Assembly (NCBI RefSeq): GCF_964213995.1
Contig: NC_135808.1
Location: 36,580,001 to 36,644,000, forward strand
Origin: Mustelus asterias
Taxonomy: Eukaryota
Length of the DNA: 64,000 nucleotides
Direction: 5' to 3'
The position numbers were made by a program, and so were the translations under genes. The notes under the pieces were generated by a model, which saw only the letters and a program-made list of their open reading frames with translations, was not told the DNA's origin and searched no databases. The first letter of the stretch is position 1. Every line of letters begins with the position of its first letter. Shown piece by piece: positions 6,840 through 60,269 of this stretch.

Positions 6840-10450
<3,611 letters not shown>

Positions 10451-11419
10451 GTAGCTTTTCTTCTGATAACTCTTTTACAACAGATGCATCTTGTGTCTTA
10501 GGAGTTCTTATCGAAGTGGAGCCTTCTTCATACACTTCACATATGAGAAACCTCCCACCATAGGAATGAGTCAGTGGTTCATGAGGCTCAATGAATGATT
10601 GAAGCTCTCAACATACTTGGAGCCCATTCAGACAGCTTCCCAGTCACACCCTAATAAATGCTCCTCAGACGAACCTTTGGAAATGTTGATTCTGATGGAT
10701 GGTTCCAAACTGATGACCAGTTTCAGATTTGATGATAGGTCAAAGGTCCCCTGACCCGACTGATTTCTCGGTGATGGCTTTACTGCTCAATATTCTCTGT
10801 GTTGAGCAATGCTGTGAAGGGACACAATTATGTTGTTGTTCCTTTAGTGATAGTCAGGATCTATCTATGGTGTCTATCCTCTCTGTACTCTCTGATGTAG
10901 TACGGTGCAATCCATCTGTAAAACAGGATTTCCTCCAACTCCCTTTCGTCCTTGCTGAAGGGATTAATTCCTCCATTAAAGACTGTTCAACAGTGAGTGC
11001 CAGTCTGTTATGTTATAGAATGGAGATTTTGAAATTTCTCCTAATTTTCAGAAAATATTTGATGAAAACACACCAGCAGGAAGTGCTAGAAGCTAAGGAA
11101 AATATTACTTCAGTGTAGCTATTTGAAGGGTTCTGGTTTATCCTGGGAAATTAGACACACTGCACTCACTCAGACTTCGCATCACGAGTTCAGTTATCAG
11201 ACACAGCACTGGGCAAAACTATCAAATCCAAGCCCAGGCTTGGGAAAGGCCGTGGCCTTCAGGTAAAATCTTTAATGAAGGCATTAAAATACATTTCAAT
11301 AAATGTGTCTCTGTCCCTCCCAGATGACTGCATCTCACCTTTTCAAATTTAGTAATGACCCATCAACAAAATATAGCATGAGATGAGGAGTTTGACTGAC
11401 AAAGAGAGATTGGGCAGTT

Positions 11420-13428: not shown

Positions 13429-14151
13429 GGATTGGATGCTGCACTTGGTTGAGGTCATTGGGTTACATTGAAGCTTCATATGTTTCATATGAAGCAATTT
13501 TTAAAAGCGGCATCCCGGCCTTTTGGCTAAGATGCAAATAAGCTCAAGTCTTGGAGGAGGTGTTGCTTTGCTCCTCCAATCAGCTTGGCTCATGTAGATC
13601 GGGCCCAGGACAAGGTGGTTTGGTCGCCTGCCCTGTCTTGTCAGCCTGGATCGGAAATGCTTCAACTTGTTGAGACTCTGAATTGGATTTGATTTGATTG
13701 AATTGGAAAAGTATTTTAAAAAAGGGCTGAATTTGGAGCTGAGGGAAGCTGAAGTTCCACAGCAGGCAACCTCTGGATATGGTAGGGCTGTGAATTATTA
13801 AACCATAGGGCATCAACTCACCCAATGAGCCCCAGCACACTCCCTGAGTCACCAAGACAATCTCCCAGAAATAGAGACACTCCTCGATCACTGGGTCAAT
13901 CTCCCCTCTCCGGGTCACTGTCTCTCCTCTATCCGTCTGTTCTGTGAGTGTGTGTCTCTCTCTCTCTCTTGTGTCCATCTGTCCTGTGCATGTGCTGATT
14001 CCACGACGACACATCATCGCTGCCTTGGATGCTGTGGGTCTTCCTCTTCTGATCTGCAAATCCCAGGCTACTCATCCCACACTGATGTCAGTTTGAAAGC
14101 CTCTGAGGATGAAGAATGTTATTCCCACACTAGGAATGTCTGTCACACATT

Positions 14152-14716
14152 TAGAAGTCTCACAACACCAGGTTAAAATCCAACAGGTTCATTTGGTAGC
14201 AAAAGCCACTCGCTTTTGGAGCGCTGCTCCTTCGTCAGGTGAGTAGGACTTCTGTTCACAAACAGGGCATATAAAGACACAAACTCAATTTACAAAATAA
14301 TGGTTGGAATCGCATTCCACATCCCTTGATTGAATACAAAAATAGAGAGAGAGAAATGATTTAGAATGTAACGTGCAGCACACTCAGATTTGATTTGATT
14401 GGATTAGATTTATTCTTGTAACATGTATTAGTGTACAGTGAAAAGTATTGTTTCTTGCACGCTATACAGACAAAGCATACCGTTCATAGAGAAGGAAAGG
14501 AGAAGGTGCAGAATGTAGTGTTACAGTCATAGCTAGGGTGGAGAGAAAGATCAACTTAATGCGAGGTAAGTCCATTCAAAAGTCTGAGAGCAGCAGGGAA
14601 GAAGCTGCTGCTGCTCTTCGGAGCAGTGCTCCGAAAGCTAGTGGCTTTGCTACCAAATAAACCTGTGAGACTTCTTACTGTGTTTACCCCAGTCCAACGC
14701 CGGCATCCCCACATCA
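14152..14716. mobile_element. Penelope pLTR fragments (inverted pair) with a nested Rex1/Babar 3' end (~14385-14612, minus strand)
   Basis: Same sequence family as 33866-34627 and 56700-56955; Rex tail (atttg)n. Confidence 0.7.
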
Positions 14717-14719
14717 TGT

Positions 14720-15007
14720 CACACATTTACCAGGGTAATTGAGACAGCAGCTGCAATAAGTGAGGCTTTATTCAGATGGAACAATGACAAGTTTAAATCC
14801 CCACCTGATCTGCTGCTCAAAGTCGCCTCCGTTTCACCAGTCAGTTTCCCAAACTTCAGGAAACTCATGTTACTCCAGAAATATTTGGATTGGCTGTGAG
14901 AGACGTCAATCAGAGAGCCCACCCACTCTGCCCATTTCCTCCTCTTCCTCTTTCACAGCGGCTTCACTTCCTGGAGGGACTGAAAACGAAGTGAGGAGAT
15001 GGTGAGT
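14720..15007 (+). promoter_or_regulatory. Repeated ZNF-module promoter/short 5' exon, copy 1, ending ATG|GTGAGT (15001/15002)
   Basis: Inverted CCAAT (gattggc), GACGTCA CRE-like and CACTTCCTG ETS-like motifs, consensus donor. Recurs at ~37220, ~44480, ~57780 and, inverted, ~33350. Confidence 0.65.
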
Positions 15008-15742
15008 GAAGGAGCAGAATTTATAATAATTACATTGCATAATATCCACACTAATGTTCAGGCAGTCTGACTATCCTGTGGGGAATCAGGTGTGGAAATG
15101 CCCCTTATGCTGTGTGAGAAGATCCAGCTAAGAGACCTGTTTACTCGGTGCTTTGGTTTGAGCTATTTGATTGGAGCTGTGTGTTGGATATTGAGTGTAT
15201 TTATTGGAAGCATTTCCCTTCTGACTTACACTTCCATTCTGAGTTTTATTGATGGGTCATTGCTGAATAAGAGGTGAAGTGTAATTATTTGGGAGGTGCA
15301 GAGACACATTTCTTCAAATGTGATTTAATGCCTTCTTTAAAGATTTCACCTGAAGGCCTCGGCCTTTCCCAAAAGCCTGGGCTTGGATTTGATAGTTTTG
15401 CCCAGTGCTGTGTCTGATAGCTGAATTTGGGATGTGCAACTTGAGTGAGTGCAGTGTATCTAATTTCCCAGGATAAACCTAGAACCCTTCAATCAGCTAC
15501 AATATTTTTGTATTTTCCTTAGCTTATATCACTTCCTTCCCATTGTGATTTCTTCAGATAATTTGGGAAAACGGGGGAAAAGTTGAAAATATCCATTGAA
15601 TTAACATTTCTCCGGATTAAACACAAACTTGAAGGGTAAAACTGGTCTTTACCAGGACAATATGAGTTCATAGTTCATTGGTAACTTGTTTTACACCCCG
15701 CTTGAAGGTCTATTCCATTGACTTCATGGTGCTATCAGATGT

Positions 15743-16105
15743 GCATGGTGGCACACTGGTTAGCACTGCTGCCTCACAACACCAGGGACCCAGGTTCGAT
15801 TCGAGCCTTGGGGGATTCTCTGTGTGGAGTTTGCACGTTCTCCCCATGTCTGCATGGGTTTTCTCTGGCGCTCTGGTCACTTCCCACGGTCCAAAGATAT
15901 GCAGATTAGGTGGATTGGACATGATAAATTGCCCTTTAGTAACCAAAGATGTGTAAATTAAGGAAAAATAGCGGGATATGTGTGGGGTTATGGGGATAGG
16001 GCAGGGGATGGGCCTGGGTAAAATGCTCTCTTCTGTTGGAGATTTGGAGCAGACTTGATGGGCTGAATGGCCTCCTTCTGCATTGTTTTTATGATATTAT
16101 GATTC
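15743..16105 (+). mobile_element. HE1/V-SINE
   Basis: tRNA head with ggttcgattc B box and HE1-like body and tail. Confidence 0.8.
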
Positions 16106-16860
16106 CTGAAATGAGGAATTCCAGCATTTTCTCAATCTGTCAGAGAGTGAGTGCAAATTTGATGAGTCTAATGGTCTCCTTTTGCCTGTAGGGATTCTGT
16201 GAAGTGCCTGGGCAGAGGAAATAAAGTGGTCACATTGTCAACTACCAAGTGTCCCTGCTGGAAACAGACTGTGGAAAATTGCAAGTGACACATGGGAATC
16301 GCAGACTGGCACTCACTGTGGAACCGTCTCTAACTGAGGAGTCAACCTCTTCAGCAAAGGAGGAGAGTGAATTTGAGGAAAACCTGTTTCCTTTTCCTGC
16401 TTTACAGAAGGATTACGCCGTACTACACCGGGGAATATCGAGAGAATAGACACAACAGATAGATCCTGACCATTACCCAAGGAACAACTGCACAACTGTG
16501 GAAAGCTATCCAGTCCCTTCACAGCATTGTCCAACAGAGCAGATTGGGCAGTGAAACAATCATCTGGAAATTGGTCGGGTCAGGGTACTTTGACATATCA
16601 GATCTGAAACGGGTCAGTGGTGTGGGACCATCCATCAGAACCAACCTTTCCGAAGGTTGGCTGTGGGCAATCGATCAGGATGAGGCTGGGAAGACATTTG
16701 AGTGAAGTGCAAGTGTGGTGAGAGCTTTAATCATTCATCGAGCCTCATGGCCAACTGACTAATTCCTACAGATGAGAGGCTGTTCAAGTGTGAAATGTGT
16801 GTCAGATCATAAAATCTTCTCAGGTGTTTTTGTTACAACTACTGTTACAAGGGCAACCAC

Positions 16861-18966
16861 ATGGAAGGAAAACGATTCAGCTGTGATGTTTGCGATCAAG
16901 GTTTTGTGAATTCCATGATGCTTCTGAGACACCAGGTGATTCACACAGGGGGCAAACCCTTCACGTGTGAGGTGTGCAACAAATCATTCTCAGAGTCATG
17001 GACTGTCCGTAATCACCAACGCATTCACACAGGAGAGAAACCATTCACATGCGAGGTGTGTGACAAATCATTTTCGCAGTCATCGACCCTCCACAGACAT
17101 CGTCGCATTCACAGAGGGGAGAAACCTTTCACTTGTGACGTGTGTGACAAATCATTCTCGCGGTCATCGCACCTCCATAGGCACCAGCGTACTCACACAG
17201 GGGAGAAACCCTACACGTGTGAGGTGTGTGACAAATCATTTTCTGAGTCATCGAACCTCCGTGTACACCAACGCATTCACACAGGAGAGAAATCTTTGCC
17301 GTGCAAGGTATGTGTTATATATTTAACTGGTTGCATCATTGCCTTCGGAGCTGATCACATGATTTGGTGATGTCATCAGGGTGTTTCACAGGCAGCTGTT
17401 TCGTTTCAGTTTGTACTCTGTATAGGGCAGATAACACTGCTTCAATAAACATACTGCGCGTACTTTGAATCCACATGTGCAAACCACATATTTTCTTTTT
17501 GTTCAAAACCCACAACCCCTAACAAAGAACATTACAGTATGTGGCAAATGATTCTCAGACTCATTGGCTTCTTGCATACGCTGACATATTCACATTCAAG
17601 GTATATGACAAAATATTCTTGGACACATTAGTTTCTTGTGTATACAAACACATTGACATGTATGGATGTGACAAATCAATCCCTGGGTCACATTCCCACT
17701 ACATACAGCAACACATTTATGCAGAATACAAATCATTCACATGCATGCTAATATCAGAATATTAAATATATATATATGTTAATTTTTGAAACTTTAAAAT
17801 CGTAATTTTTGAGTTGAAAATACAGAAAGATCGCGGTTTTTTAAACTAATTTTATGTTGTGTTGTGAAATGCGGTTGCCTTGTAGTTGGCTCTGACTTTG
17901 TCATAAGATTGAAACCTAATCAGAAGTCCCTCTGGGTGCAGGCTGAAAGCTGTCTCCAGCACTCAGAAAATGTGTCACAGGCAGCACAGCAAAGTCTGAA
18001 CCATGATTCATGTTTCATTTTCATTTCTTCCTTTAGGTAAAGCTGACCCATAACTCACAGGAGAGCTCATTGACTGGAGGGCGGGTTCTGTACATCAAGG
18101 AGCTGACAGAACATGAGGAGTTCACAAGGAAGCAGTTTGGTCCCTCCAACCCCACGATAACCAACTCAGATATGGGGATGAGCGAAGGTGATGTCAGCAG
18201 CTGAGTGTTCAAACCATCAGGAGGAGAGTTAATTTACGTGACAAAAGATAACAATTGTGATTTTCTTCCTCTGACAGATAAAAAAGTATCCATGGGCAGA
18301 GCAGATGGTGATGGAGGAGAGTTGGCAGCAGCGTCTGAGATTCCCAAAAGGACTGATGAGGAAGGGACAGAGGTAAATACCTCACAGCAATTTGGCATGG
18401 CAACTGCAGTGGAGGAGGGAGTGGTCAATGATGAGGTCAAGTTAAATATTGTAGTTTGTGTGAAGGAGGAGCCCTGTGATGCTCTGGCTGCTGTGGTGGA
18501 GGGAGGCCACTTCGTAACTTCTGGATGTGTGGAACCTGCCGCTTTGGTAGCAGAAGCTCCGCCACCTCCACGAGCGCACAGACGACATCAGGCCCTTGCT
18601 GCTGGTGAAGAAAATGAAGATGATCTGAAACCTCTTGCACGTTTACATCAGGAACAGGTTCAAAGTACGGAGCGTTATCAGGCCATTTCTAACTTGCTTC
18701 AGCAAACTTTAACTGAATTTAAGACGGATGTTAACCAGAAGCTTCAAAGTAACAATGAAATTCTTCAGCATCATCTACAAAGAAATAATGAGATTATTCA
18801 ACAGCATCTACAAAGAAACAATGAGATTCTTCAACAACAGAACGAGATTCTTTGTCAACTTCTGCAAAGAAGCAATGAAACTTTGAATGAAATGAGGCCG
18901 ATTCTGTCTCGAGTTGTAGCATGGTCCTTCAAAATCCATGAGAAAGGGGGACAGATCTCAAGATAG
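16861..18966 (+). CDS. Predicted spliced fusion gene: 5 C2H2 fingers plus Harbinger Myb/SANT-like C-terminal region; exons 16861-17307, 18037-18187, 18278-18966 (~428 aa)
   Basis: Donor AAG|GTATGT at phase 0; acceptor tttcttcctttag|; 151-nt exon VKLTHNSQESSLTGGRVLYIKELTEHEE...; GAAG|gt..cag|AT joins in frame with ORF 18205-18966. Same structure in the paralog at 46178. Confidence 0.75.
17313..17536. mobile_element. Solo LTR (224 bp) with 5-bp target-site duplication GTATG
   Basis: TG...CA ends, internal AATAAA, GTATG at 17308-17312 and 17537-17541; absent from the paralog at 47213. Confidence 0.7.
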
Positions 18967-21560
18967 TTCAGAGAATTATTTGAGGAATGGTGAAGAAAGT
19001 CAGGCAATTGGAGGTTCTGGATATTTTGTTTCAAAGGGAGAACTTTTTCTTTGCTTATCTAACAAAATAAGTAGACAAATTAAAATTTTGAGAGATGATG
19101 AGTGGCCGCATTTTTGTGAGATTTGGCGCTACTCATCTTTGAATCCTTTTTTAAAATCCTGATGCAAGACCCATAATTATTTGATTCTGATGTGCATAAT
19201 CTGTGAAATCCTGGTAAATGTTTTAACACCGGGGAGCCGAATTTAGTCAAAGAAATCCTCGTCCGTGTCAGAGAGGGCTGGGGTGGGGCCCAGTTCATGG
19301 CGGTTGTTCACTGGTTAGCGAGTTTGCACTTTGGTGATACTGTTGCCCCCATGATGAAGGCCATTCTTGTGCGTTAAAATGTGGACAAAGTTTTCAGCGC
19401 CCCGGCACAGATTATTGATACCATGATGAATTGTGAGATATCCTACAGAGCATGGATGAAGCGGAGATTAGAATCCTGTCAGAGGTAGGGCCTCTCCTTC
19501 CATCCTTGGAAATTCTGCTGCATGGTATGTTGAGACATCCTGCAGGAGTTTGGGCGACAGTGTCAAGTGAGGGCTGTCCATGAGCTAGATCACCTGAGAA
19601 GAGCCGTGGTGAGATTCCTGGCTGATTTTGAGAACTGGCTGCCATGCTTTCACAATCTCGATCTGAGGGCTGGGCATCTTCAGTTTGGTCAAGCATATTT
19701 CATCTGGGCTTCGAGACCTGGGGTCGGTCCGAGACCTCAACCCTGGCCTTGCATTGTCTTGACAATGTTTGTCAAGAAGGGTTGGAGGCGGCCGGACGCA
19801 ATGAGTCTGCAACACCCACCGGGGCCCAGGTTCCTGCTCATTGGGCTCTGGGATGACATGACAGATGAACAGAGAGTTTGGTGAAACTGGATGACTCTTG
19901 TGTGTTCCTTGATGATGCAGTCATGGCCTCAACCTTTTCTAGCTCCATGTATTATCCTGCAGTTCATCATTGATCCCGAACTTTGTTCCTTTGTGATGTT
20001 GCCTTTTATCGTGATAAGGGTATATGATGAGCACACACACAGGCAGTTTTTCTTTTTGCCTGTTACCCTTTTTTTTAGGGCCTTCTGGTCTACTGTCCTT
20101 CTGAGCATTGGTTCATCCTGAGGTGTGGTATCATGTTGTCTCTGATGCCAGAGTACAAGCTTTTGGGCTTATGCTCTGGTGTTGATTTTCCTTCTTCAAT
20201 TGGAGTTCAGACTGGGTGGAGTACTGGGCTTGTCTCCCTCCATGTGGTCTTGCATGGAGTCGACAAGGCTGATTCTCCTCTGGGGTCTGGACTCCCCGGG
20301 AGGGTGGTACCTTGTGATGGTGTATTCCTGAGCTTTTAGGACACTACTCTTCCTATCTGGGCAGATTAGATGTTGACTTGGTGTAGTTCAGAGGGTGTCC
20401 TTTTATCTTTGGGGGACAGGGAAAGGTCACATCTCCCCCCAAGATATCCTGTTGGTGGATGTCATGACAAATTTTCTCCACACGAGTGGGGGGCTTAGGA
20501 GTGGAAAATGCTTCACATTTTCTTTCCGGTGGGCGGTGGGGTCTGCTTGGTGATTCTGATAGGATTGGGGTGCATAATCTGTTATATCATGAAGCTCAGT
20601 CTGGGTTTAACTCCTTGGATCATTGACACAAAGAAAGAAGAACGTCAATGTCTTGGCTCTTTTTTGTGTAATGCTGGGAAGGACAGTAGTTGTTCTGTGG
20701 TTCGTACTGAGGAGAGTAGGGATTATTTTTTTCCCGGATTGGGAGAGGGAAGCCTGTCCTCTCCACGATATGACCCCAGTTTTCGTGGGTTTTTTTTCGA
20801 CAACTCCTCTCCTCATGGTCAAGGCATTTGTGGGGATGATAGTGAACTCGGTTATGTGAGCTCTATTTTCTCTGTTCTCAGGTGGAACTGTGTTACTCTG
20901 CTCCTGTTATTTGGTCTTGCTTAGATATATATGATGTTGTACTTCATTACGTTGAAACTGATTTTGATGGTTGTATCCTGGGTTGTCCCTGTTCCTGGGG
21001 TATCTTCTGGTGTATTATGCCCTAATTGAATATTTTTTTACCACACAAGAAAGATTTCTAAAGTTTGGAATGTCTTACTACTGTCTGGTAAACAAATTTT
21101 CAAATAATGGGGAAAAAAATACTGGCTGGATATCAGAATTTGTGTAACCATGGAAGACAGTTATGGCAAAGAAATGTTCAAGTGGTTGGTACAAAATATT
21201 GGAATTGATTCACTGGTGGAAGTGGAGTGGAAGCTTTGTGGAAAAGCATTCGTATAATCTGGACTGGATTCAGAATGCAAGCTGCTAAGTGAAATTATTA
21301 CTTCAAGAGAATATTTTGAAGCCTATTTTGGGAATGGAGTTTGGAAACTCTCATATGATCATCTTCTGGGGGGATTCTGAGGAGAAATCCACAAACACTA
21401 ACTTCGCCTGTTTGTGAGACCATTGTAGCTTCAAATGTACTTTGTCATCCATATTAAAATCTGTGTATGATTGCTAAGCAAAAGGGGGAGTAAAGCAGTA
21501 TTATAAGATCCATTTTCCATGTTTAATAAATGATTTTTTCTTGTTGTTAAAAATAATTAG
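18925..21560. mobile_element. Degraded retroelement-like insertion(s), family uncertain
   Basis: Absent from the paralogous region after 48820; fragmented ORFs; LTR-like end with AATAAA near 21525. Confidence 0.35.
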
Positions 21561-31175: not shown

Positions 31176-31967
31176 TCAATCACAGGCCTCACTTGGCTTC
31201 CCTGCTGTGTGAATGCGACGATGATCCAACATGCCCCATAATTGTTCAAAGTCCTTATCACACACATCACATCTGAATGTTTTCTTCTTTTTCGTGTGAC
31301 TCCTCCTGTGAATCGCCAGGCCTGATATCCGTGTAAAGTCCTTATGACATACCTCACACTTGTATGGCTTCTCCCCAGTGTGAAGACGTTGGTGTTCTTG
31401 GAGTCTCAATGGCCGGGAGAATGATTTCTTACACACTTTACACCTTAATTGGTTATCCTCAGTGTGAGTGCGATGGTGTTGACGGAGGGTCGATGAATGG
31501 GAGAATGATTTCTTACACACTTCACAGGAGAATGCTTTCTCCCCTGTATGAACGTGTCGGTGTTCCACGAGTGCTGATAAACGGGTGAAGGCTCGGTCAC
31601 ACAACTCACAACTGAAGGGATTCTCCCCTGTGTGAATGCTCTGATGTATCAGGAATTCTGTCGATGTTGGGAAAGCTTTATCACAAAACTCACACTTGAA
31701 GCGTTTCTCCCCTGTGTGGATTGTCTGATGGACCTGGAGGTTCGATAACTGTGTGAAAGATTTCTCACACACGTCACAGCGGAACGGCTTCTCCCCTGTG
31801 TGAATGCGTTTGTGTGTGTGCAGATGCGATGACCGCGAGAATGATTTGTTGCAAACCTCACACGAAAATGGTTTATCACCACTGTGAGTGCGTTGGTGGT
31901 TACGAAAGTGGGATGACCATGAGAATGATTTGTCACACAACTTACACTTTAACAGTTTTGCTTCCAT
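31176..31967 (-). CDS. C2H2 zinc-finger protein, 9 fingers, 263 aa, no KRAB/SCAN/BTB domain
   Basis: Intact ORF of CxxC-x12-HxxxH repeats with TGEKP-type linkers; module acceptor at 32402/32403 and promoter block at 33350-33557. Confidence 0.85.
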   Translation of the reverse strand: MEAKLLKCKLCDKSFSWSSHFRNHQRTHSGDKPFSCEVCNKSFSRSSHLHTHKRIHTGEKPFRCDVCEKSFTQLSNLQVHQTIHTGEKRFKCEFCDKAFPTSTEFLIHQSIHTGENPFSCELCDRAFTRLSALVEHRHVHTGEKAFSCEVCKKSFSHSSTLRQHHRTHTEDNQLRCKVCKKSFSRPLRLQEHQRLHTGEKPYKCEVCHKDFTRISGLAIHRRSHTKKKKTFRCDVCDKDFEQLWGMLDHRRIHTAGKPSEACD

Positions 31968-33344
31968 GTGATAGTCCCTGTGGTTACAGCTGGTATACCT
32001 GATACTGTGGAGCCTTCCTCACACACCACACACTTGAACAGCCTCTCACCTGCAGGGATGAGTCAGTGGTCTATGAAGCTCGATGAATGATTGAAACTGT
32101 CACCACATTTTGAGTCCACTCACACTTCTTCCCAGCCTCAACATCATCCACAACTGAACTTCAGAAAGGTTGGTTCTGATGGAAGGTTCCACACCGCTGA
32201 CCAGTTTCAGATCTGATGATACATCAAAGTCCCTGACTCGACCGATTTTCAGATGTCGGTGTCACTGCCCGTCTCTGTGTTGAGCAATGCTGTGAAGGGA
32301 CTAGATGTCTTCCCACAGCTGTGCAGCTGTTGTTTGATTCGGTCAGGATCTATCTGCGGTGTCTATCCTCTATATTCTCTGGTGTAGTAAGGTGCAATCC
32401 TTCTGTAAAACAGGAAAAGGGAACATGATTTCCTCCAACTCCCTTTCCTCTTTTGCTGAGGGGCTGACTAGACTGTTCCACAGTGAGTACCAGTCTGCTA
32501 TTTCCCTGTGTGGGGGATCAGACACAAGTCCTTTCTTTTTCCTCATTTGACTGTCACACACCCACTGTTTCCAGCACGGCCACTGGATCGTGACCAGAAG
32601 CAGACAATATGGCTACTTTCTTTCCGACACCCAGACCCCTATCTTCCCAGGCAACATGAGGGAAATGGAAAATACAGCCAAATGAAGAGTAAATTAATTA
32701 ACTATAAATGCCTGGGATTTCTTTATATCTTTATAATATAAAAACACTGAGAGATGTTAATTCAATGGAAATGTAGTAGTGTCTCCCATTGTTTTCAAAA
32801 ATTATTGAAGGAAAACACACTGGGCAGGAAGTGCTGGAAGATTTTTAAAAATTGCTTCAGTGTAGCTGATTGATGCGTTCTAGTCCATCCTGGGAAATTA
32901 AATACACCACAGTCACTCAGACTGCACATCCCAAATTTCGCTATTACACACAACACTGGGTAAAACTAGCAATTCGAAGCTTAAGTTTCTCGGAAAGGCC
33001 GAGGCCTTCAGGTAAAGTATTTAAAGACGTTCAAAGATTTTTCAATAAATGTGTTTCTGCCCCTCCCAGATAATTACACCTCACCTTCTCATATTCAGTA
33101 ATGATCCGTCAACAAAACTCAGGCTGCAAATCAGAAGGTAAATACTTCCAGTAAACACACTCAATATCCAACACACAGCTCCAATCAAACAGCTCAGCAC
33201 AAAGCACCGAGTAAACAGGTCTCTCAGCTGGATCTTCTCACACAGCATAAGGGACATTTCCACAACTGATTCCCCAGAGGATAGTCAGACTGCCTGAACA
33301 TTAGTGTGGATATTATGCAATGTAATTATAAATTTTGCTCCTTC

Positions 33345-39205: not shown

Positions 39206-39854
39206 ATTGTCACTGGGTCGACATCCTGGAAGTCCCTTCCAAACAGTACTGTGGTTGAAGAAGGCAGTTCATCATAACTCTTAGGCAATTAGGAAAGGGC
39301 AATCAAAGCTGTCCTATCCAGTGAAGCCTACATCTGAGTCACCCTTCAGGAAGGGAGCAGGAGGTGCTGATGTTTCCTTTTCCTGTTTTACAGAAGGATT
39401 GCATCTTACTACGCCAGAGATTACAGAGAGGATAGACACCGCAGATAGATCTGACCATCACCCAGGAACAACTGCAAAACTGTAGGAAGACATTCAGTCC
39501 CTTCACAGTATTGCTCAATACAGAGAAGGTTGGGCAGTGAAACCATCATCTGGAAATCGGTCGGGTCAGGGGAGCTTTGACATATCATCAGATCTGAAAC
39601 TGGTCAGTTGTGTGGAACTTTCCATCAGAACCAGCCTTTCCAAAGGTTCAGCTGTGGGTGATCAGTCAGGGTGAGGCTGGGAAGAAGTGTGAGTGGGCTC
39701 CAAGTGTGGTGTGCACTTCAATCATTCATCGAGCCTCATGAACTACTGATTCATTCTTGCAGGTGAAAGGCTGTTTAAGTGCAAGGAGGGAACCACAACC
39801 TGAAAAGATTTCCTAACAGACAACTGTGGTACCTCCTGTAACACGGGCAGTCAC

Positions 39855-40808
39855 ATGGAAGAGAAATTATTCAAGTGTGAGGTGTGTGAGAAATCTTTCT
39901 CAGTGTTAGGGAAGCTAAATAAACACCAATACACTCACATAGAGCAAAAACCATTCAAGTGTGAGGTGTGCGAGAAATCATTCTCACAGTCATCGCATCT
40001 CCTCCAGCATCAGAGAATTCACACAGGGGAGAAACCATTCACATGTGAGGTGTGTGACAAATCATTCTCGCAGTCATCAAATCTGCTGCAGCATCAGAGG
40101 ATTCACACAGGGGAGAAACCATTCAGTTGTGAGGTGTGTGGCAAATCATTCTCAACATCAGGGACTCTCCATAAACACCAACGCACTCACAAAAGGCAGA
40201 AACCATTCATATGTGAGGTGTGTGACAAATCATTCTCATCATCATCATATCTCCGTTTACACCAGCACATTCACACAGGGGAGAAGCCATTCACTTGTGA
40301 GGTGTGTAAAACGTCTTTCATCCAGTCATCCCTTCTCCTGAGGCACCAGAGGATTCACACGGGGGAGAAACCATTTAAGTGTGAGATGTGTGACCAAGCA
40401 TTCACACAGTCATCAAACCTCCGTGCACATCTACGCATTCACACTGGGGAGAAACCATTCAAGTGTGAGGTGTGCAACAAATCATTCTCACGCTCATCTC
40501 ATCTCCGTGTACACCAACGCATCCACACTGGGGAGAAGCCATTCACTTGCAAAGCGTGCGACAAATCATTCTCACAGTCATCGACCCTGCACGAACACCA
40601 ACGCCTTCACACTAGGGAGAAACCATTCACTTGCGAAGTGTGCAGCAAATCATTCTTACAGTCATCAACTCTTCATGAGCACTACCGTGTTCACACAGGG
40701 GAGAAACCATTCACGTGTGAAGTGTGTAATAAGGGCTTTGCACAAATATCAGGACTGTTAAATCACTGGCGTGTTCACACAGGGGAGAAGCCCTATATTC
40801 AAACATAA
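39855..40808 (+). CDS. C2H2 zinc-finger protein, 11 fingers, 317 aa, no effector domain visible
   Basis: Intact ORF; acceptor at 39393/39394 upstream; degenerate fingers continue at 40810-41460. Confidence 0.88.
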   Translation: MEEKLFKCEVCEKSFSVLGKLNKHQYTHIEQKPFKCEVCEKSFSQSSHLLQHQRIHTGEKPFTCEVCDKSFSQSSNLLQHQRIHTGEKPFSCEVCGKSFSTSGTLHKHQRTHKRQKPFICEVCDKSFSSSSYLRLHQHIHTGEKPFTCEVCKTSFIQSSLLLRHQRIHTGEKPFKCEMCDQAFTQSSNLRAHLRIHTGEKPFKCEVCNKSFSRSSHLRVHQRIHTGEKPFTCKACDKSFSQSSTLHEHQRLHTREKPFTCEVCSKSFLQSSTLHEHYRVHTGEKPFTCEVCNKGFAQISGLLNHWRVHTGEKPYIQT

Positions 40809-46177: not shown

Positions 46178-48854
46178 ATGGAAGAGAAACTATTCAGGTG
46201 TGATGTTTGTGATAAAGATTTTGTAAATTCTACAAAGCTCCTGAGACACCAGGTGATTCACACAGGCAAGAAACCATTCAGATGTGATATTTGTGTGAAG
46301 TCCTTCTCACAATCATCGACTCTCCTTCAACATCAGTACCTTCACACAGGGGAGAAACCCTTCATGTGCAAAATGTGTGACAAATCATTCCCATGGTCAT
46401 CAGCTCTCCGCAAACACCAACGTGTTCACACAGGAGAAAAACCCTTCACATGTGAGGTATGTGACAAATCATTTACACAGTCATCTGGCCTCAGTGAACA
46501 CAGACGTCTTCACACAGGGGAGAAACCCTTCAACTGTGATGTTTGTCAGATGACTTTCAGCCGAAAAGCCAGCCTTCTATCACACCAGAGGATTCACACA
46601 GGGGAGAAACCCTTCACTTGTGAGGTGTGTGACAAATCATTTTCAAAGTTATCAAACCTCCGACAGCATCGACGCATTCACACAGGGGAGAAACCCTTCA
46701 AATGTGATGTTTGTAAGAAAGCTTTCAGCCAATTTGCCCATCTTCTGTCACACCAGAGAATTCACACGGGGGAGAAACCCTTCACATGTGAGGTGTGTAA
46801 CAAATCATTCTCGTTGTCATCGACCCTCCGCGAACACCAACGTGTTCACACAGGGGAAAAAGCATTCACGTGTGAGGTGTGTGATAAATCATTCTCAAAG
46901 TCATCGACCCTTCGTGTACACCAACGCATTCACACGGGGGAAAAGCCATTCACATGTGAAGTGTGTGACAAATCATACTCAGATTCGTCAACTCTCTGTA
47001 AACACCGACGCACTCATGCAGCTGAGAAACCTTTCAAATGTGACTTTTGTAAGAAAGCTTTCAACCAATTTGCCCATCTTCTATCACACCAGAAGATTCA
47101 TAGAGGGGAGAAACTCTTCACATGTGAGGTTTGTGACAAATCATTCTCGGAATCATCGACCCTCCGCAAACACCAACGCACTCACACAGGGGAGAAACCC
47201 TTCCCATGCAAGGTATGTGACTAATTATTCTCAGACTTATTGGCTTTTTGTGTATACTGACATATTCACATGTATGTATGTGACAAATCATTCCCTCTTT
47301 TGTCATCTTCCCTCTGCACACAGCAACACATTCCCATTTATGGTATGTAACAAATCGTTCTCGGACTAATCAGTCCTCTGCACACTGGTGAGAAACTAGT
47401 CACATATGAGGTATGACAAATCATTCTCATGGTCATCAGACATCCACAGACACCAACACATTCATACTGCAGCTCACCTGCTTCCCTTACACTGAGAGTT
47501 GTTGTGTTGCTTACCCTCCAGTGCTCACAGGGGAGCTGTCCTTCCAAAGCACTGTCTGTCTCAGCAGTGTCTGTCTCCAACCTCTCCCACCATCAGTCCA
47601 ATTGTTTCAAAAAGGTCCATTTAACCTTTGACCCGCTTGCCAAACATCTCCAAAAGAAGACATCTATATGTATAGAAATTGCTGCTTAAGCACAAGTTTC
47701 CCTACGATGGACAAGAGGGCAATAGCTGAATATTAATTACATAAATATATGATAATTTTTGAAACTTTGAATCATAGTTTTTGAGTTGAAATTACAGGTT
47801 GATCTGTAATCAGAAGTCCCCCTGGGTGCAGGCTGAAAGCTGTCTCCATCGCTCGGAAAATGTGTCACAAGACAGCACAGTGAAGTCTGGACCATGACTT
47901 TTTCATTTTCATTCCTTCCTTTAGGTAAAGCTGGCCCATAATATCCAGGAGCGCTCATTGACTGGAGGAGGAGTTCCGTACATCAAGGAGCTGACGGAAC
48001 AGGAGGAGTTCACGAGGAAGCAGTTTGGCCTCTCCAACCCCACAATAACCAATGGCGGATCAGATATGGGGATGAGCGAAGGTGATGTCAGCAGCTGAGT
48101 GTTTAAACCATCAGGAGGAGAGTTAATTTATTTGATAAAAGATAATAATTGTGATTTTCTTCCTCTGACAGATACACAGGTGTCCATGGGCACATCAGAT
48201 GGTGATGGAGGAGAGTTGGCAGCAGCGTCCGAGATTCCTGAAAGGATTGATGAGGAAGGGACGGAGGTGAATACATCACAGCAGTGTGACATAGCAACGG
48301 CAGTGGAGGAGGGAGAGGAGAGTCAGGAGGGTAAGATGTCTGATTTGGAGGATAATGTTGGTGAGTTAAAGTTAAATATTGTGGCTTATGTGAAGGAGGA
48401 GGCCTGTGATTCTCTGGCTGCTGTGGTGGAGGGAGGGCACTCAGAATCTTCTGGAGGTGAGGAACCCGCTGCTTTGGGAGCAGAAGCCTTGCCACCTCCA
48501 GGAGCATATGGACAACAACAGGCCCATATTGCTGGTGAAGAAAATAAAGATGATCTGAAACCTTTTGCACACTTACATCAAGAACATGTTCAAAGATTGG
48601 AGAGTTATCAGATCACTTCTAACTTGCTTCAGCAAACTTTGACTGAATTTAAGACAGATGTTAGTCTGAATCTGCAAAGAAACAATGAGATTCTTCAGCA
48701 GCATCTACAAAGAAACAATGAGATTCTTCAGCAGCAGAATGAGTTTCTTTGTCATCTTCTGCAAAGAAGCAATGAAACTTTGAATGAAATGAGGCAGATT
48801 CTGTCTCAGATTGTTGGGCCTGCACCTTCTGGCCAGCAGCAGCCCAGTGCATAG
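46178..48854 (+). CDS. Predicted spliced fusion gene: 12 C2H2 fingers plus Harbinger Myb/SANT-like C-terminal region; exons 46178-47212, 47925-48081, 48172-48854 (~624 aa)
   Basis: Donor AAG|GTATGT after 345 codons; acceptor ttccttcctttag|; 157-nt exon VKLAHNIQERSLTGGGVPYIKELTEQEEF...; phase-1 join to ORF 48099-48854 (acidic region, VKEE, LQRNNEILQQH repeats). Confidence 0.8.
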
Positions 48855-58050: not shown

Positions 58051-59489
58051 GAAAAAGCAGAATTCATAATAATTACAGTGCATAATATCCACACTAATGT
58101 TCAGGCAGTCAGACAATTCTGTGGGGAATCAGGTGTGGAAATGGCCCTTATGCTGTGTGAGAAGATCCAGCTGAGAGACCTGTTTACTCGGTGCTTTGTG
58201 CTGAGCTGTTTGATTGGAGCTGTGTGTTGGATATTGAGTGTATTTATTGGAAGCATTTCCCTTCTGATTTGCAGGCTGAGTTTTGTTGATGTCTCATTAC
58301 TGAATATGAGAACGTGAGATGTTATTATCTGAGAGAGGCAGAAACACATTTATTGAAATGTCTTTGAACGTCTTCTTTAAATACTTTACCTGAAGGCCTC
58401 AGCATTTCCGAGAAACCTCGGCTTCAATCTGATAGTTTTGCCCAGTGCTGTGTCTGATAGCTGAATTTGGGATGTGCAGTCTGAGTGAGTGCAGTGTATC
58501 TAATTTCCCAGGATAAACCAGAACCCTTCATTCAGCTGCACTGAAGTGTGATTTTCGTTAGCTTCAAGCATTTCCTGCCCAGTGTATTTTCTTCAAATAA
58601 TTTTGGAAGACAAGGGGAGAAATTTAAAAATCTCCATTGAATTAACATTTCTTCTGAGTTTCTGTACATTAAAGAAATAGTCTAAGGATAAAACTGGCCT
58701 GTGTCAGCACAATTCAAGCTCATAGTGAATTAAAGCATGTTTTACGCTCCACCCGACTCTCTTTTCCATTGCACTCATGGTGCCTGGGAAGATGGGGGTC
58801 TGGGCAGAGGAAAGAAAGTAGCCATGTTGTCTGCTCCTGGTCACGATCCAGTGTCCCTACTGGAAACAGGGGGTGTGTGACAGTCAAGTAACAAAAAAGA
58901 AAATACTTGCATCTGATTCCCCCAGCAGGGTATTAGCAGACTGTCACTCACTGTGGAACAGTCTCTAACTGTGGAGTCAGCCCCTTCAGCAAAGGAGAAG
59001 AGGGAGTTGGAGGAAATCATGTTTCTTTTTCCTGTTTTACAGAAGGATGGTACCGTACTGCACAAGAGAATACAGAGAGGATAGTCACTGCAGATAGATC
59101 CTGACTAGCACCCAAGAAACAACTGCACAACTGTGGGAAGACATCCAGTCCCTTCACAGCACTGCTCAGCACAGAGAAAGTTGGACAGTGAAACCATCAT
59201 CTGGAAATCGGTCAGGTCAGGAGAGCTTTGACATATCGTCAAATCTGAAACTGGTCAGTGGTGTGGCACCTTCCATCAGAACCAACCTTTCCGAAGGATC
59301 GGCTGTGGATGATCGGTGTGCGAGACTGGGAAGAAGTGTGAGTGGGCTCCAAGTGTGGTGAGAGTTTCACTCATTCCCCAAGCCTCATTAACCACTGACT
59401 TATTCCTGCAGGGGAGAGGCTGTTCAAGTTTGAGGTGGGCTCCACAGAATCCTACCTTCTCCAGACACTGCTAAGATCAGGACTGCGAC

Positions 59490-60269
59490 ATGGAAGGAAA
59501 AAGATTCAAGTGTGAGGTTTGCTGTAAAGTTTTTGTGACATCTTCAAGCCTCCTGATACACCAGAGGATTCACACTGGGGAGAAACCCTTCAGGTGTGAT
59601 GTCTGTGAGGCAGCTTTCACTCAATCCTCCAATCTCCAAACGCATATGAGGATTCACTCAGGGGAGAAACCATTCAAGTGTGATGTGTGCAACAAATCAT
59701 TCTTGCAGTCATCAGCCCTCCGCAGACACCAACGTATTCACACAGGGGAAAAACCATTCACGTGTGAGGTGTGTGACAAATCATTCTCTCGATCGTTGAC
59801 TCTCCTCGACCACCAACGCATTCACACTGGGGAGAGACCTTTCACGTGTGAAGTGTGTAATAAATCATTCTCACGGCCATCAACCCTCCTCGAACACCAA
59901 CACATTCACACAGGGGAAAAACCATTCAGATGTGAGGTGTGCGGTAAATCATTTACACGTTCATCAGATCTCCGTGTCCACCTGCGCATTCACACAGGGG
60001 AGAGACCATTCAAGTGTGAGGTGTGTAACAAATCGTTTTCAGACTCATCTGCCCTTCGGGAACACAGACGTATTCACACAGGGGAGAAACCATTCACGTG
60101 TGAGGTGTGTGACAAATCATTCACACAGTCATCAACTCTCCGTGCACACCAACGCATTCACACAGGGCAGAAACCGTTCACATGTAAGATTTGTGACAAA
60201 TCATTCTCGCAGTCCCGAACCCTCCGTGTACACCAATGCATTCACACAGAAGTAACCCTTCTCATGTAA
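59490..60269 (+). CDS. C2H2 zinc-finger protein, 9 fingers, 259 aa, no effector domain visible
   Basis: Intact ORF; acceptor at 59042/59043; degenerate fingers continue to ~60760. Confidence 0.88.
   Translation: MEGKRFKCEVCCKVFVTSSSLLIHQRIHTGEKPFRCDVCEAAFTQSSNLQTHMRIHSGEKPFKCDVCNKSFLQSSALRRHQRIHTGEKPFTCEVCDKSFSRSLTLLDHQRIHTGERPFTCEVCNKSFSRPSTLLEHQHIHTGEKPFRCEVCGKSFTRSSDLRVHLRIHTGERPFKCEVCNKSFSDSSALREHRRIHTGEKPFTCEVCDKSFTQSSTLRAHQRIHTGQKPFTCKICDKSFSQSRTLRVHQCIHTEVTLLM

Follow-up and report, generated by a model that had tools for sequence, protein, structure and literature searches.

Locus A, at positions 16861 to 18966 of the window (the whole 64,000-nucleotide stretch of Mustelus asterias DNA analyzed here), is probably a functional member of a clustered shark family of about 40 genes. 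Splicing in this family is predicted to join a C2H2 zinc-finger exon, variable among copies, to the final two exons of a Harbinger-type Myb/SANT gene that lacks its Myb exon, such that the fingers would choose the DNA and the tail would bind partners. The shark gene family is real, was made by a swap of DNA-binding domains on a Harbinger-type gene, and is apparently undescribed. Its key event is the loss of the Myb DNA-binding exon, which, like the size of the family, the original prediction had overlooked. The anatomy and history of the family are well supported. We infer that the fingers bind DNA and that a predicted helix in the tail provides self-association or cofactor recruitment.

Table 1. 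Predicted features of locus A and its paralog (positions within the window)
Feature	Position	Strand	Remarks
Putative promoter and non-coding first exon	14727..15001 (limits approximate)	+	Conserved block; inverted CCAAT, donor-like ATG/GTGAGT
Finger exon, 5′ untranslated part	16408..16860	+	Acceptor TTTACAG ends at 16407
Finger exon, coding part	16861..17307	+	ATG, five C2H2 fingers, then a sixth, degenerate finger at the phase-0 donor AAG/GTATGT
Intron 1	17308..18036	+	Decayed fingers; from ~17772, 3′ part of the first intron of the Myb gene
Tail exon 2 (VKLTHN..TGG..IKELT)	18037..18187	+	Homologous to exon 2 of Harbinger Myb genes
Intron 2, 90 nt	18188..18277	+	Unusually conserved; skipped in contigs of 3/4 runs
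Exon 3, first half: acidic linker, predicted disordered	18278..18615	+	Structure prediction
Exon 3, second half: one predicted helix of ~110 residues	18616..18948	+	11-residue repeats of QHHLQRNNEIL type, number varying among copies
Derived 3′ end: last 14 residues and stop (18964-18966)	18911..19088	+	Match to L038 only, among 39 loci
Paralog B	46178..48854	+	12 fingers (46178-47212), exon 2 (47925-48081), exon 3 (48172-48854)

The features of locus A and of paralog B, which lies in the same window, are listed in Table 1. In locus A, four splice sites (donor after 17307, acceptor before 18037, donor after 18187, acceptor before 18278) and introns of phases 0 and 1, as in paralog B, give an open spliced frame of 428 aa with five C2H2 fingers and a stop ending at 18966. 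The spliced frame of paralog B is open as well (624 aa, 12 C2H2 fingers), and its intron 2 also measures 90 nt. The original prediction had assigned both copies the same exon layout and phases, with a 90-nt second intron in each; comparison of splice sites and frames confirmed this, as it did the difference of five versus 12 fingers. The acceptor motif of the finger exon is present in all zinc-finger (ZNF) units of the window, and the conserved block upstream is kept in 5/5 aligned units, its donor-like site in 4/5. Within intron 1, remains of degenerate fingers are visible, and homology to the Myb-retaining copy L043 begins 265 nt before the acceptor, at the breakpoint of the Myb-exon loss. 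The derived 3′ end of A stands in place of the family's usual C-terminus, which often ends basic, and by this end A is closest to L038, not to paralog B. Copy A also has the longest end branch of the tail tree.

Locus A had been presented as the second copy of a pair, but the tail loci, itself included, number at least 39. The first fingers of A (FVNSMMLLRHQVIH) and B (FVNSTKLLRHQVIH) do match as claimed, although this likeness is not specific to the pair, related first fingers being found in most copies. The tails also differ by frame-keeping indels, of 6, 36 and 33 nt; the 33-nt indel is a single unit of an internal tandem repeat, however, so only two of them are informative. Homology between the two tails stops near 18910. 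Differences between A and B affect 5/90 sites of intron 2 (5.6%), 17/151 of exon 2 (11.3%) and 94/643 of exon 3 (14.6%). Thus exon and intron divergence showed the opposite of the contrast expected under selection, with intron 2 more alike than either exon, and the A-B pair alone is poor evidence of selection. Omega for the pair is 0.63 (95% interval 0.42-0.94). NG86 estimates (0.43 for A-B, 0.54 for the family) were set aside, because this method ignores transition bias.

When the tail was searched against its own genome, 54 matches were obtained and grouped into 39 loci, 38 at 35.1-40.5 Mb on C8 and one on C11; 40/82 candidates were scored, so the family comprises at least 39 loci. Six more tail-like places were kept outside the frame tally. 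The 5.4-Mb span that holds 38/39 loci is a zinc-finger cluster. Among the mapped copies, 29/35 have a same-strand finger array upstream, and in 25/35 the array ends in an in-frame donor of the AAG/GTATGT type. All junctions were mapped for 29 loci, of which 23 have open tails of at least 260 aa and six are broken; the AG acceptor is lost in 3/23 open tails. Exon 3 is open in four of the 10 partially mapped loci (240-264 codons), bringing the open tails to 27/39 loci. In three of those four, a new in-phase donor visibly comes from a LINE fragment in exon 2; two of the four correspond to public models P0008 and P0009.

A LINE 3′ fragment lies within exon 2 at L055, L056, L058 and L060 (C8:36.85, 35.47, 40.52 and 36.55 Mb), where the exon is cut to 73 nt; we take the fragment, by resemblance, to be CR1-like. 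The shortened exon-2 peptide is also found in Scyliorhinus torazame (P0001), and hence the insertion likely predates the split of the two genera. At L061, a 3.2-kb insertion in intron 2 leaves the frame intact. The 5′ region of the finger genes occurs cluster-wide, with 251 candidates, of which 40 were scored, all 40 on C8. Judging from these numbers, tails mark a minority of units. Within the window, finger genes at 9935-10474, 31176-32018, 39804-40808 and 59475-60269 share the promoter-like block and the 5′ region and show no tail match. Shuffling of tails among finger genes was examined with a tree of the 5′ region, in which 28/37 inner branches are unresolved; tail-less and tail-bearing units are mixed in this tree, including in one supported clade.

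By homology, the tail represents the second and third exons of a Harbinger-type Myb/SANT gene. The order fingers-Myb-tail is seen in models from Cetorhinus (P0011), Carcharodon (P0031) and Chiloscyllium (P0183), in which the Myb exon is open and the finger exon short. In the Mustelus genome this form is a pseudogene, a dead orthologue inside the cluster. The only surviving Myb exons carry a stop; they are those of L043, L092 and the C11 copy L066. Upstream of the one in L043, at a distance of 10 kb, the Cetorhinus finger exon has a frameshifted match. The Myb/SANT trihelix domain (PF13873) is absent from A, from B and from 33/35 mapped copies. In 24/33 Myb-less copies, homology to L043 starts 256-282 nt ahead of the acceptor, barely within the former intron, and this common breakpoint indicates a single founding deletion. 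Broken ORFs (L066:6296-7519, minus strand), located ~2.4 kb upstream of the Myb remnant on C11, are taken by us to resemble a retroviral envelope gene.

We then compared the tail gene with other Myb genes of the Harbinger type. Of the 19 Myb-like loci fetched, eight have a convergent DDE_Tnp_4 transposase, and 7/8 of these encode a tail-type exon-2 peptide after the same phase-0 intron (after ..RAAR); one transposase-linked example reads EKNIHNAREMTQTGGGVPDLRQLT, and the tail type reads VKLAHNIQERSLTGGGVPYIKELT. Similarity of the tail gene to the transposase-linked Myb genes is confined to the Myb exon and exon 2. In a tree of 33 Myb domains, rooted for drawing only, the Myb of the fusion (98/92) groups with conserved elasmobranch genes; their clade (98/97) is separate from the transposase-linked Myb genes. 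The tail's linker and helix also occur in P0067 and P0069, which are stand-alone relatives. The donor clade includes conserved shark and ray genes, such as a C3 gene that is 88-92% identical to Carcharodon P0060. The donor was likely a host gene already domesticated, although the case is not clean, given transposase remnants near three members of the donor clade (L127, L137 and L139). No transposase match was found in the 10-kb stretches of the Myb-retaining L043, L092 and L066 and their flanks, and no transposase-like ORF of at least 90 aa is apparent among those of the window. The genome as a whole has at least 150 DDE_Tnp_4 matches above the cut-off, many with long open frames; in elephant shark, Harbinger was not detected, according to the accessible text of PMC9179366. 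The locus had been described as a Harbinger fusion, and this holds for the tail, which is of the Harbinger-Myb type, but the immediate donor belongs to a clade apart from transposase-linked elements and the fusion contains no transposase.

Two other Myb/SANT loci were observed in this genome. A separate tandem cluster at G000:C16:88.5-89.3 Mb (L120, L139) holds at least eight paralogs, most of them without a stop in the Myb exon. At G000:C3:47757500-47760300 (L121) lies an intact stand-alone gene, the one 88-92% identical to Carcharodon P0060, with close relatives in Heterodontus, Pristiophorus and Pristis; it is a candidate elasmobranch Harbinger domestication, annotated only as uncharacterized.

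To assess selection on the tail across the family, we simulated neutral tails at the observed substitution numbers, and a fraction of 0.119 (~12%) is expected to be stop-free. The observed figure is 23/29 among fully mapped loci, and even when counted as 23/39, the difference from the stop-only simulation is large (P ~3e-12). Copy A carries 76 changes relative to the column majority; under this load its frame would stay open with a chance of 6%. Indels in exons are multiples of three in 22/32 events, compared to 8/30 in introns (P = 0.001, after manual merging of one split gap in A), and all 10 exon indels of other lengths sit in broken copies. A stop in the last exon would not trigger decay, and most of the tail lies in that exon; the open frame thus points to a protein.

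Constraint on the amino-acid sequence is less pronounced. In a codon model of 23 tails, picked for being open, omega is 0.70 overall (2dL 25.5 against 1); exon 2 and the helix are each at ~0.5 (2dL 32.5 and 27.4), the 122-codon linker at ~1. When compared to the column majority, the six broken copies show ratios like those of the open ones (0.85 and 0.87). In this majority-based test, a value of ~0.96 is obtained for codons 1-30 of the helical region. These data show that the frame of the tail is strongly kept and its sequence only moderately. Purifying selection on the tail, as originally proposed, is therefore upheld for the frame, but at the amino-acid level it is weak and patchy, both in the family and between A and B.

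Intron 2 evolves more slowly than third codon positions (tree length 1.35 versus 1.82, 22 copies). In the window, this 90-nt intron (18188-18277) has a weak donor (GTGATG) despite its high conservation. The idea that it forms a structured RNA was unsupported, as an Rfam search over 14000-20000 returned one match, far below the gathering score and located in exon 3. Our guess is that its conservation reflects splicing constraint on a short intron.

Contact residues of the fingers vary freely. We analyzed 158 fingers from 21 genes (21/29 copies; eight, including A, were left out, the donor having been missed by the pattern) and found 111 distinct contact fingerprints, with no two arrays alike. 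The proposal of a changing finger module is borne out by these differences from copy to copy. Values of pN/pS are near 1 for contact codons (0.342/0.381 and 0.395/0.349), compared to 0.36-0.54 for held-out framework codons (0.136/0.252 and 0.105/0.293). Contact residues thus appear relaxed or diversifying, not >1 by a margin, a pattern that fits a changing recognition module. The arrays are tandem C2H2 fingers with TGEKP linkers, clustered and expanded, and no KRAB, SCAN, BTB or ZAD domain was found for finger exons or tail among the best 25 Pfam matches listed per protein. In the fetched loci, 51/177 finger linkers contain a phase-0 donor-like GAG/GTGTGT (cf. window 17305-17313), which suggests why finger-tail fusions arise easily. 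Model P0062 joins the tail after three fingers, compared to eight predicted, so finger number may also vary by splicing. The arrays of L032, L035, L041 and L054 open with VKQPF(P/T)C after a stop. As model P0013 reads ..PCK-VKQPF.., the array of this subgroup may be split by a phase-0 intron.

Expression was assessed in four runs from four studies, none recorded as RNA; X1 and X2 were guessed to be RNA, and X15 and X17 are of unknown kind. Run X15 may share its source with the assembly and hence is not independent; it alone has pieces identical to copy A. Contig depth sums all paralogs and is thus a family signal rather than a measure of the level of copy A. Depth climbs in the bin from 16394 in 4/4 runs; the finger exon, exon 2 and exon 3 are deeply covered, intron 1 is thinly covered, and coverage drops after 18915. 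Depth falls sharply after the finger-exon donor and is near zero at 17558-17945 in 3/4 runs. The joint of exons 2 and 3 is present in contigs of 3/4 RNA-like runs (18187 to 18289, the gap being filled by 11 paralog letters). The 15 joints listed, out of 352, do not include that from fingers to tail, so its presence is neither supported nor contradicted. Contigs continue beyond the donor into intron 1, indicating that a finger-only transcript probably exists too. The original prediction had named expression of both paralogs as a check; what the contigs show is exon 2-3 splicing, at the level of the family and in the tail part of the transcript.

We infer the finger-to-tail splice in copy A from public gene models of its paralogs. 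Protein searches with exon 3 and exon 2 returned 19 and 52 proteins, respectively, all from sharks. The tail-matching proteins come from Mustelus asterias, Scyliorhinus canicula, S. torazame, Cetorhinus and Carcharodon, and are named uncharacterized, hypothetical or '-like'. Fingers are joined to the tail in models from Mustelus and from the two Scyliorhinus species. In 5/7 Mustelus models tested, the tail is identical to predicted loci and the fingers run into exon 2 at phase 0; the tail of A itself is matched by 0/7.

In the predicted structure of the exon-3 peptide, modeled as a monomer, residues 1-110 are without secondary structure (mean pLDDT 42-62) and residues 113-223 form a helix, with 101 residues at pLDDT ≥90. 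The hydrophobic period of 3.67 is stronger than that of 3.5, and the 11-residue helix repeat changes in number in frame. Pfam searches with the tail gave only weak coiled-coil-type matches below cut-offs, and none for exon 2. A search of the ESM Atlas with exon 3 gave no usable match, which speaks neither for novelty nor for absence. A lone long helix of such a kind is usually a coiled coil, and we therefore read this one as serving self-association or cofactor binding. Given that the Myb DNA-binding exon has been lost, the tail likely acts as a shared protein-binding module, comparable to KRAB in land vertebrates.

A simple history could account for these observations. A Harbinger Myb gene would have become a conserved elasmobranch gene family, and one Myb copy would have been placed behind a short finger exon, yielding the fingers-Myb-tail form that is open in lamniform and bamboo-shark models. 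A single deletion would then have taken out the Myb exon; because both flanking introns are of phase 0, the fingers would join exon 2 in frame. The Myb-less unit would have multiplied with the cluster, and the parent would have decayed in this genome. In the resulting protein, the fingers would serve targeting, the acidic stretch would be a flexible spacer, and the helix would mediate self-association or cofactor binding. As far as sequence can tell, the family most likely represents shark-specific transcription factors with a transposon-derived oligomerization or cofactor helix. By analogy, the output would most likely be repression of repeats or of lineage-specific genes. Domesticated Harbinger proteins are reported from plant chromatin complexes, ALP1/ALP2 with PRC2 and HDP1/HDP2 with an acetyltransferase complex (PMC9710019, available text), and this analogy makes a chromatin role plausible for the tail. 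A more specific scenario is that carcharhiniform sharks built a KRAB-like system by swapping the Harbinger Myb exon for finger arrays, with the helical tail as a common effector that oligomerizes and recruits chromatin silencers to transposons. We consider this possible but rather doubtful.

It is unlikely, though only somewhat more so than that scenario, that the tail is carried along as an almost neutral passenger while the finger cluster evolves by birth and death, being translated, purged of frameshifts as mildly harmful, and devoid of an effector role. The overall omega, the neutral linker, the alike ratios of broken and open copies, the mixing of tail-less and tail-bearing units in the 5′ tree and the dispensability of half of exon 2 in one subgroup would all fit a passenger. 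However, stops are avoided in the last exon too, the constraint on exon 2 and the helix is significant, and the family has been retained in both catsharks and Mustelus. The chances are lower still that the fusion is a minor isoform, or that copy A is decaying, and that the working product is a finger-only protein made by reading through the donor to a stop at 17370. The extension of contigs into intron 1 and the joints listed (15/352, none of them finger-to-tail) are compatible with a minor isoform, but depth falls sharply past the donor and rises on exons 2 and 3. Decay of A would be in line with its five fingers, 36-nt deletion, replaced end and long branch, as well as with the seven Mustelus models tested, none of which matches its tail. 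Yet its four splice sites and 428-aa frame are intact despite the substitutions it has accumulated, which makes an open frame improbable by chance, and omega for A-B is <1.

Harbinger Myb proteins bind their own transposase (PMC9392472 and PMC9710019, citing Sinzelle 2008, in the portions available), and the tail might have kept the ability to bind transposase or intact Myb proteins, acting as a decoy that tethers them to finger-bound sites. The abundance of DDE_Tnp_4 matches in this genome is in keeping with such a role. Nevertheless, we regard it as very improbable, since transposase-linked Myb genes fall outside the donor clade, the likeness to these is limited to the Myb exon and exon 2, and transposase binding is not placed in the C-terminal part in the same portions of PMC9392472 and PMC9710019. 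Our preferred reading remains a functional gene in which fingers are joined to a partner-binding tail.

No description of a shark finger-Myb fusion was found in the literature searched, which was mostly open-access, supplements aside (that of PMC10547256 might list shark finger-associated domains). Likewise, the family is not described in the accessible parts of PMC10547256, PMC9392472, PMC9710019, PMC9179366, PMC10380595, PMC12062965 and bioRxiv 10.1101/2020.05.07.082677, four of which lack the word 'shark' altogether. Reports of KRAB-ZFPs are limited to coelacanth, lungfish and tetrapods (PMC10380595), and how finger arrays are coupled to regulation in other vertebrates is an open question even for FiNZ (PMC10547256), as far as the available text of these papers goes. 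The shark family is a concrete candidate for an effector module in cartilaginous fish, testable in the catshark model. Moreover, extant genomes retain all steps of the domain swap, from the stand-alone Myb gene through fingers-Myb-tail, Myb deletion and amplification to the death of the parent.

How does this family compare with known systems? Like the KRAB-ZFPs of tetrapods, the FiNZ-ZNFs of cyprinids (PMC10547256, in part) and the ZAD-ZNFs of insects, it is a clustered, lineage-specific expansion with variable contact residues, in which a one-exon finger array is combined with a constant module encoded apart. Unlike in those systems, the shark module is C-terminal, ~280 aa in size, of transposon-gene origin, and has a long predicted helix at its end; the family has tens of genes instead of hundreds, and its module is under weak constraint. 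With NAIF1 and MSANTD1-4, as presented in the available text of PMC9392472, the shark donor shares Myb_DNA-bind_5 (PF13873) and the exon layout of Harbinger Myb genes. NAIF1 and MSANTD1-4 retain the Myb domain and remain at a single position that is conserved among vertebrates, whereas in the shark unit the Myb exon was deleted, host fingers took its place, and the unit was amplified. Finally, as in KRABINER (bioRxiv 10.1101/2020.05.07.082677, available text), host exons are spliced to a transposon-derived acceptor in a zinc-finger locus. In the shark family, however, the logic is inverted, with a host DNA-binding domain joined to a transposon-derived part that does not bind DNA; the source is a Myb accessory gene rather than a transposase, and the fusion founded a multigene family.
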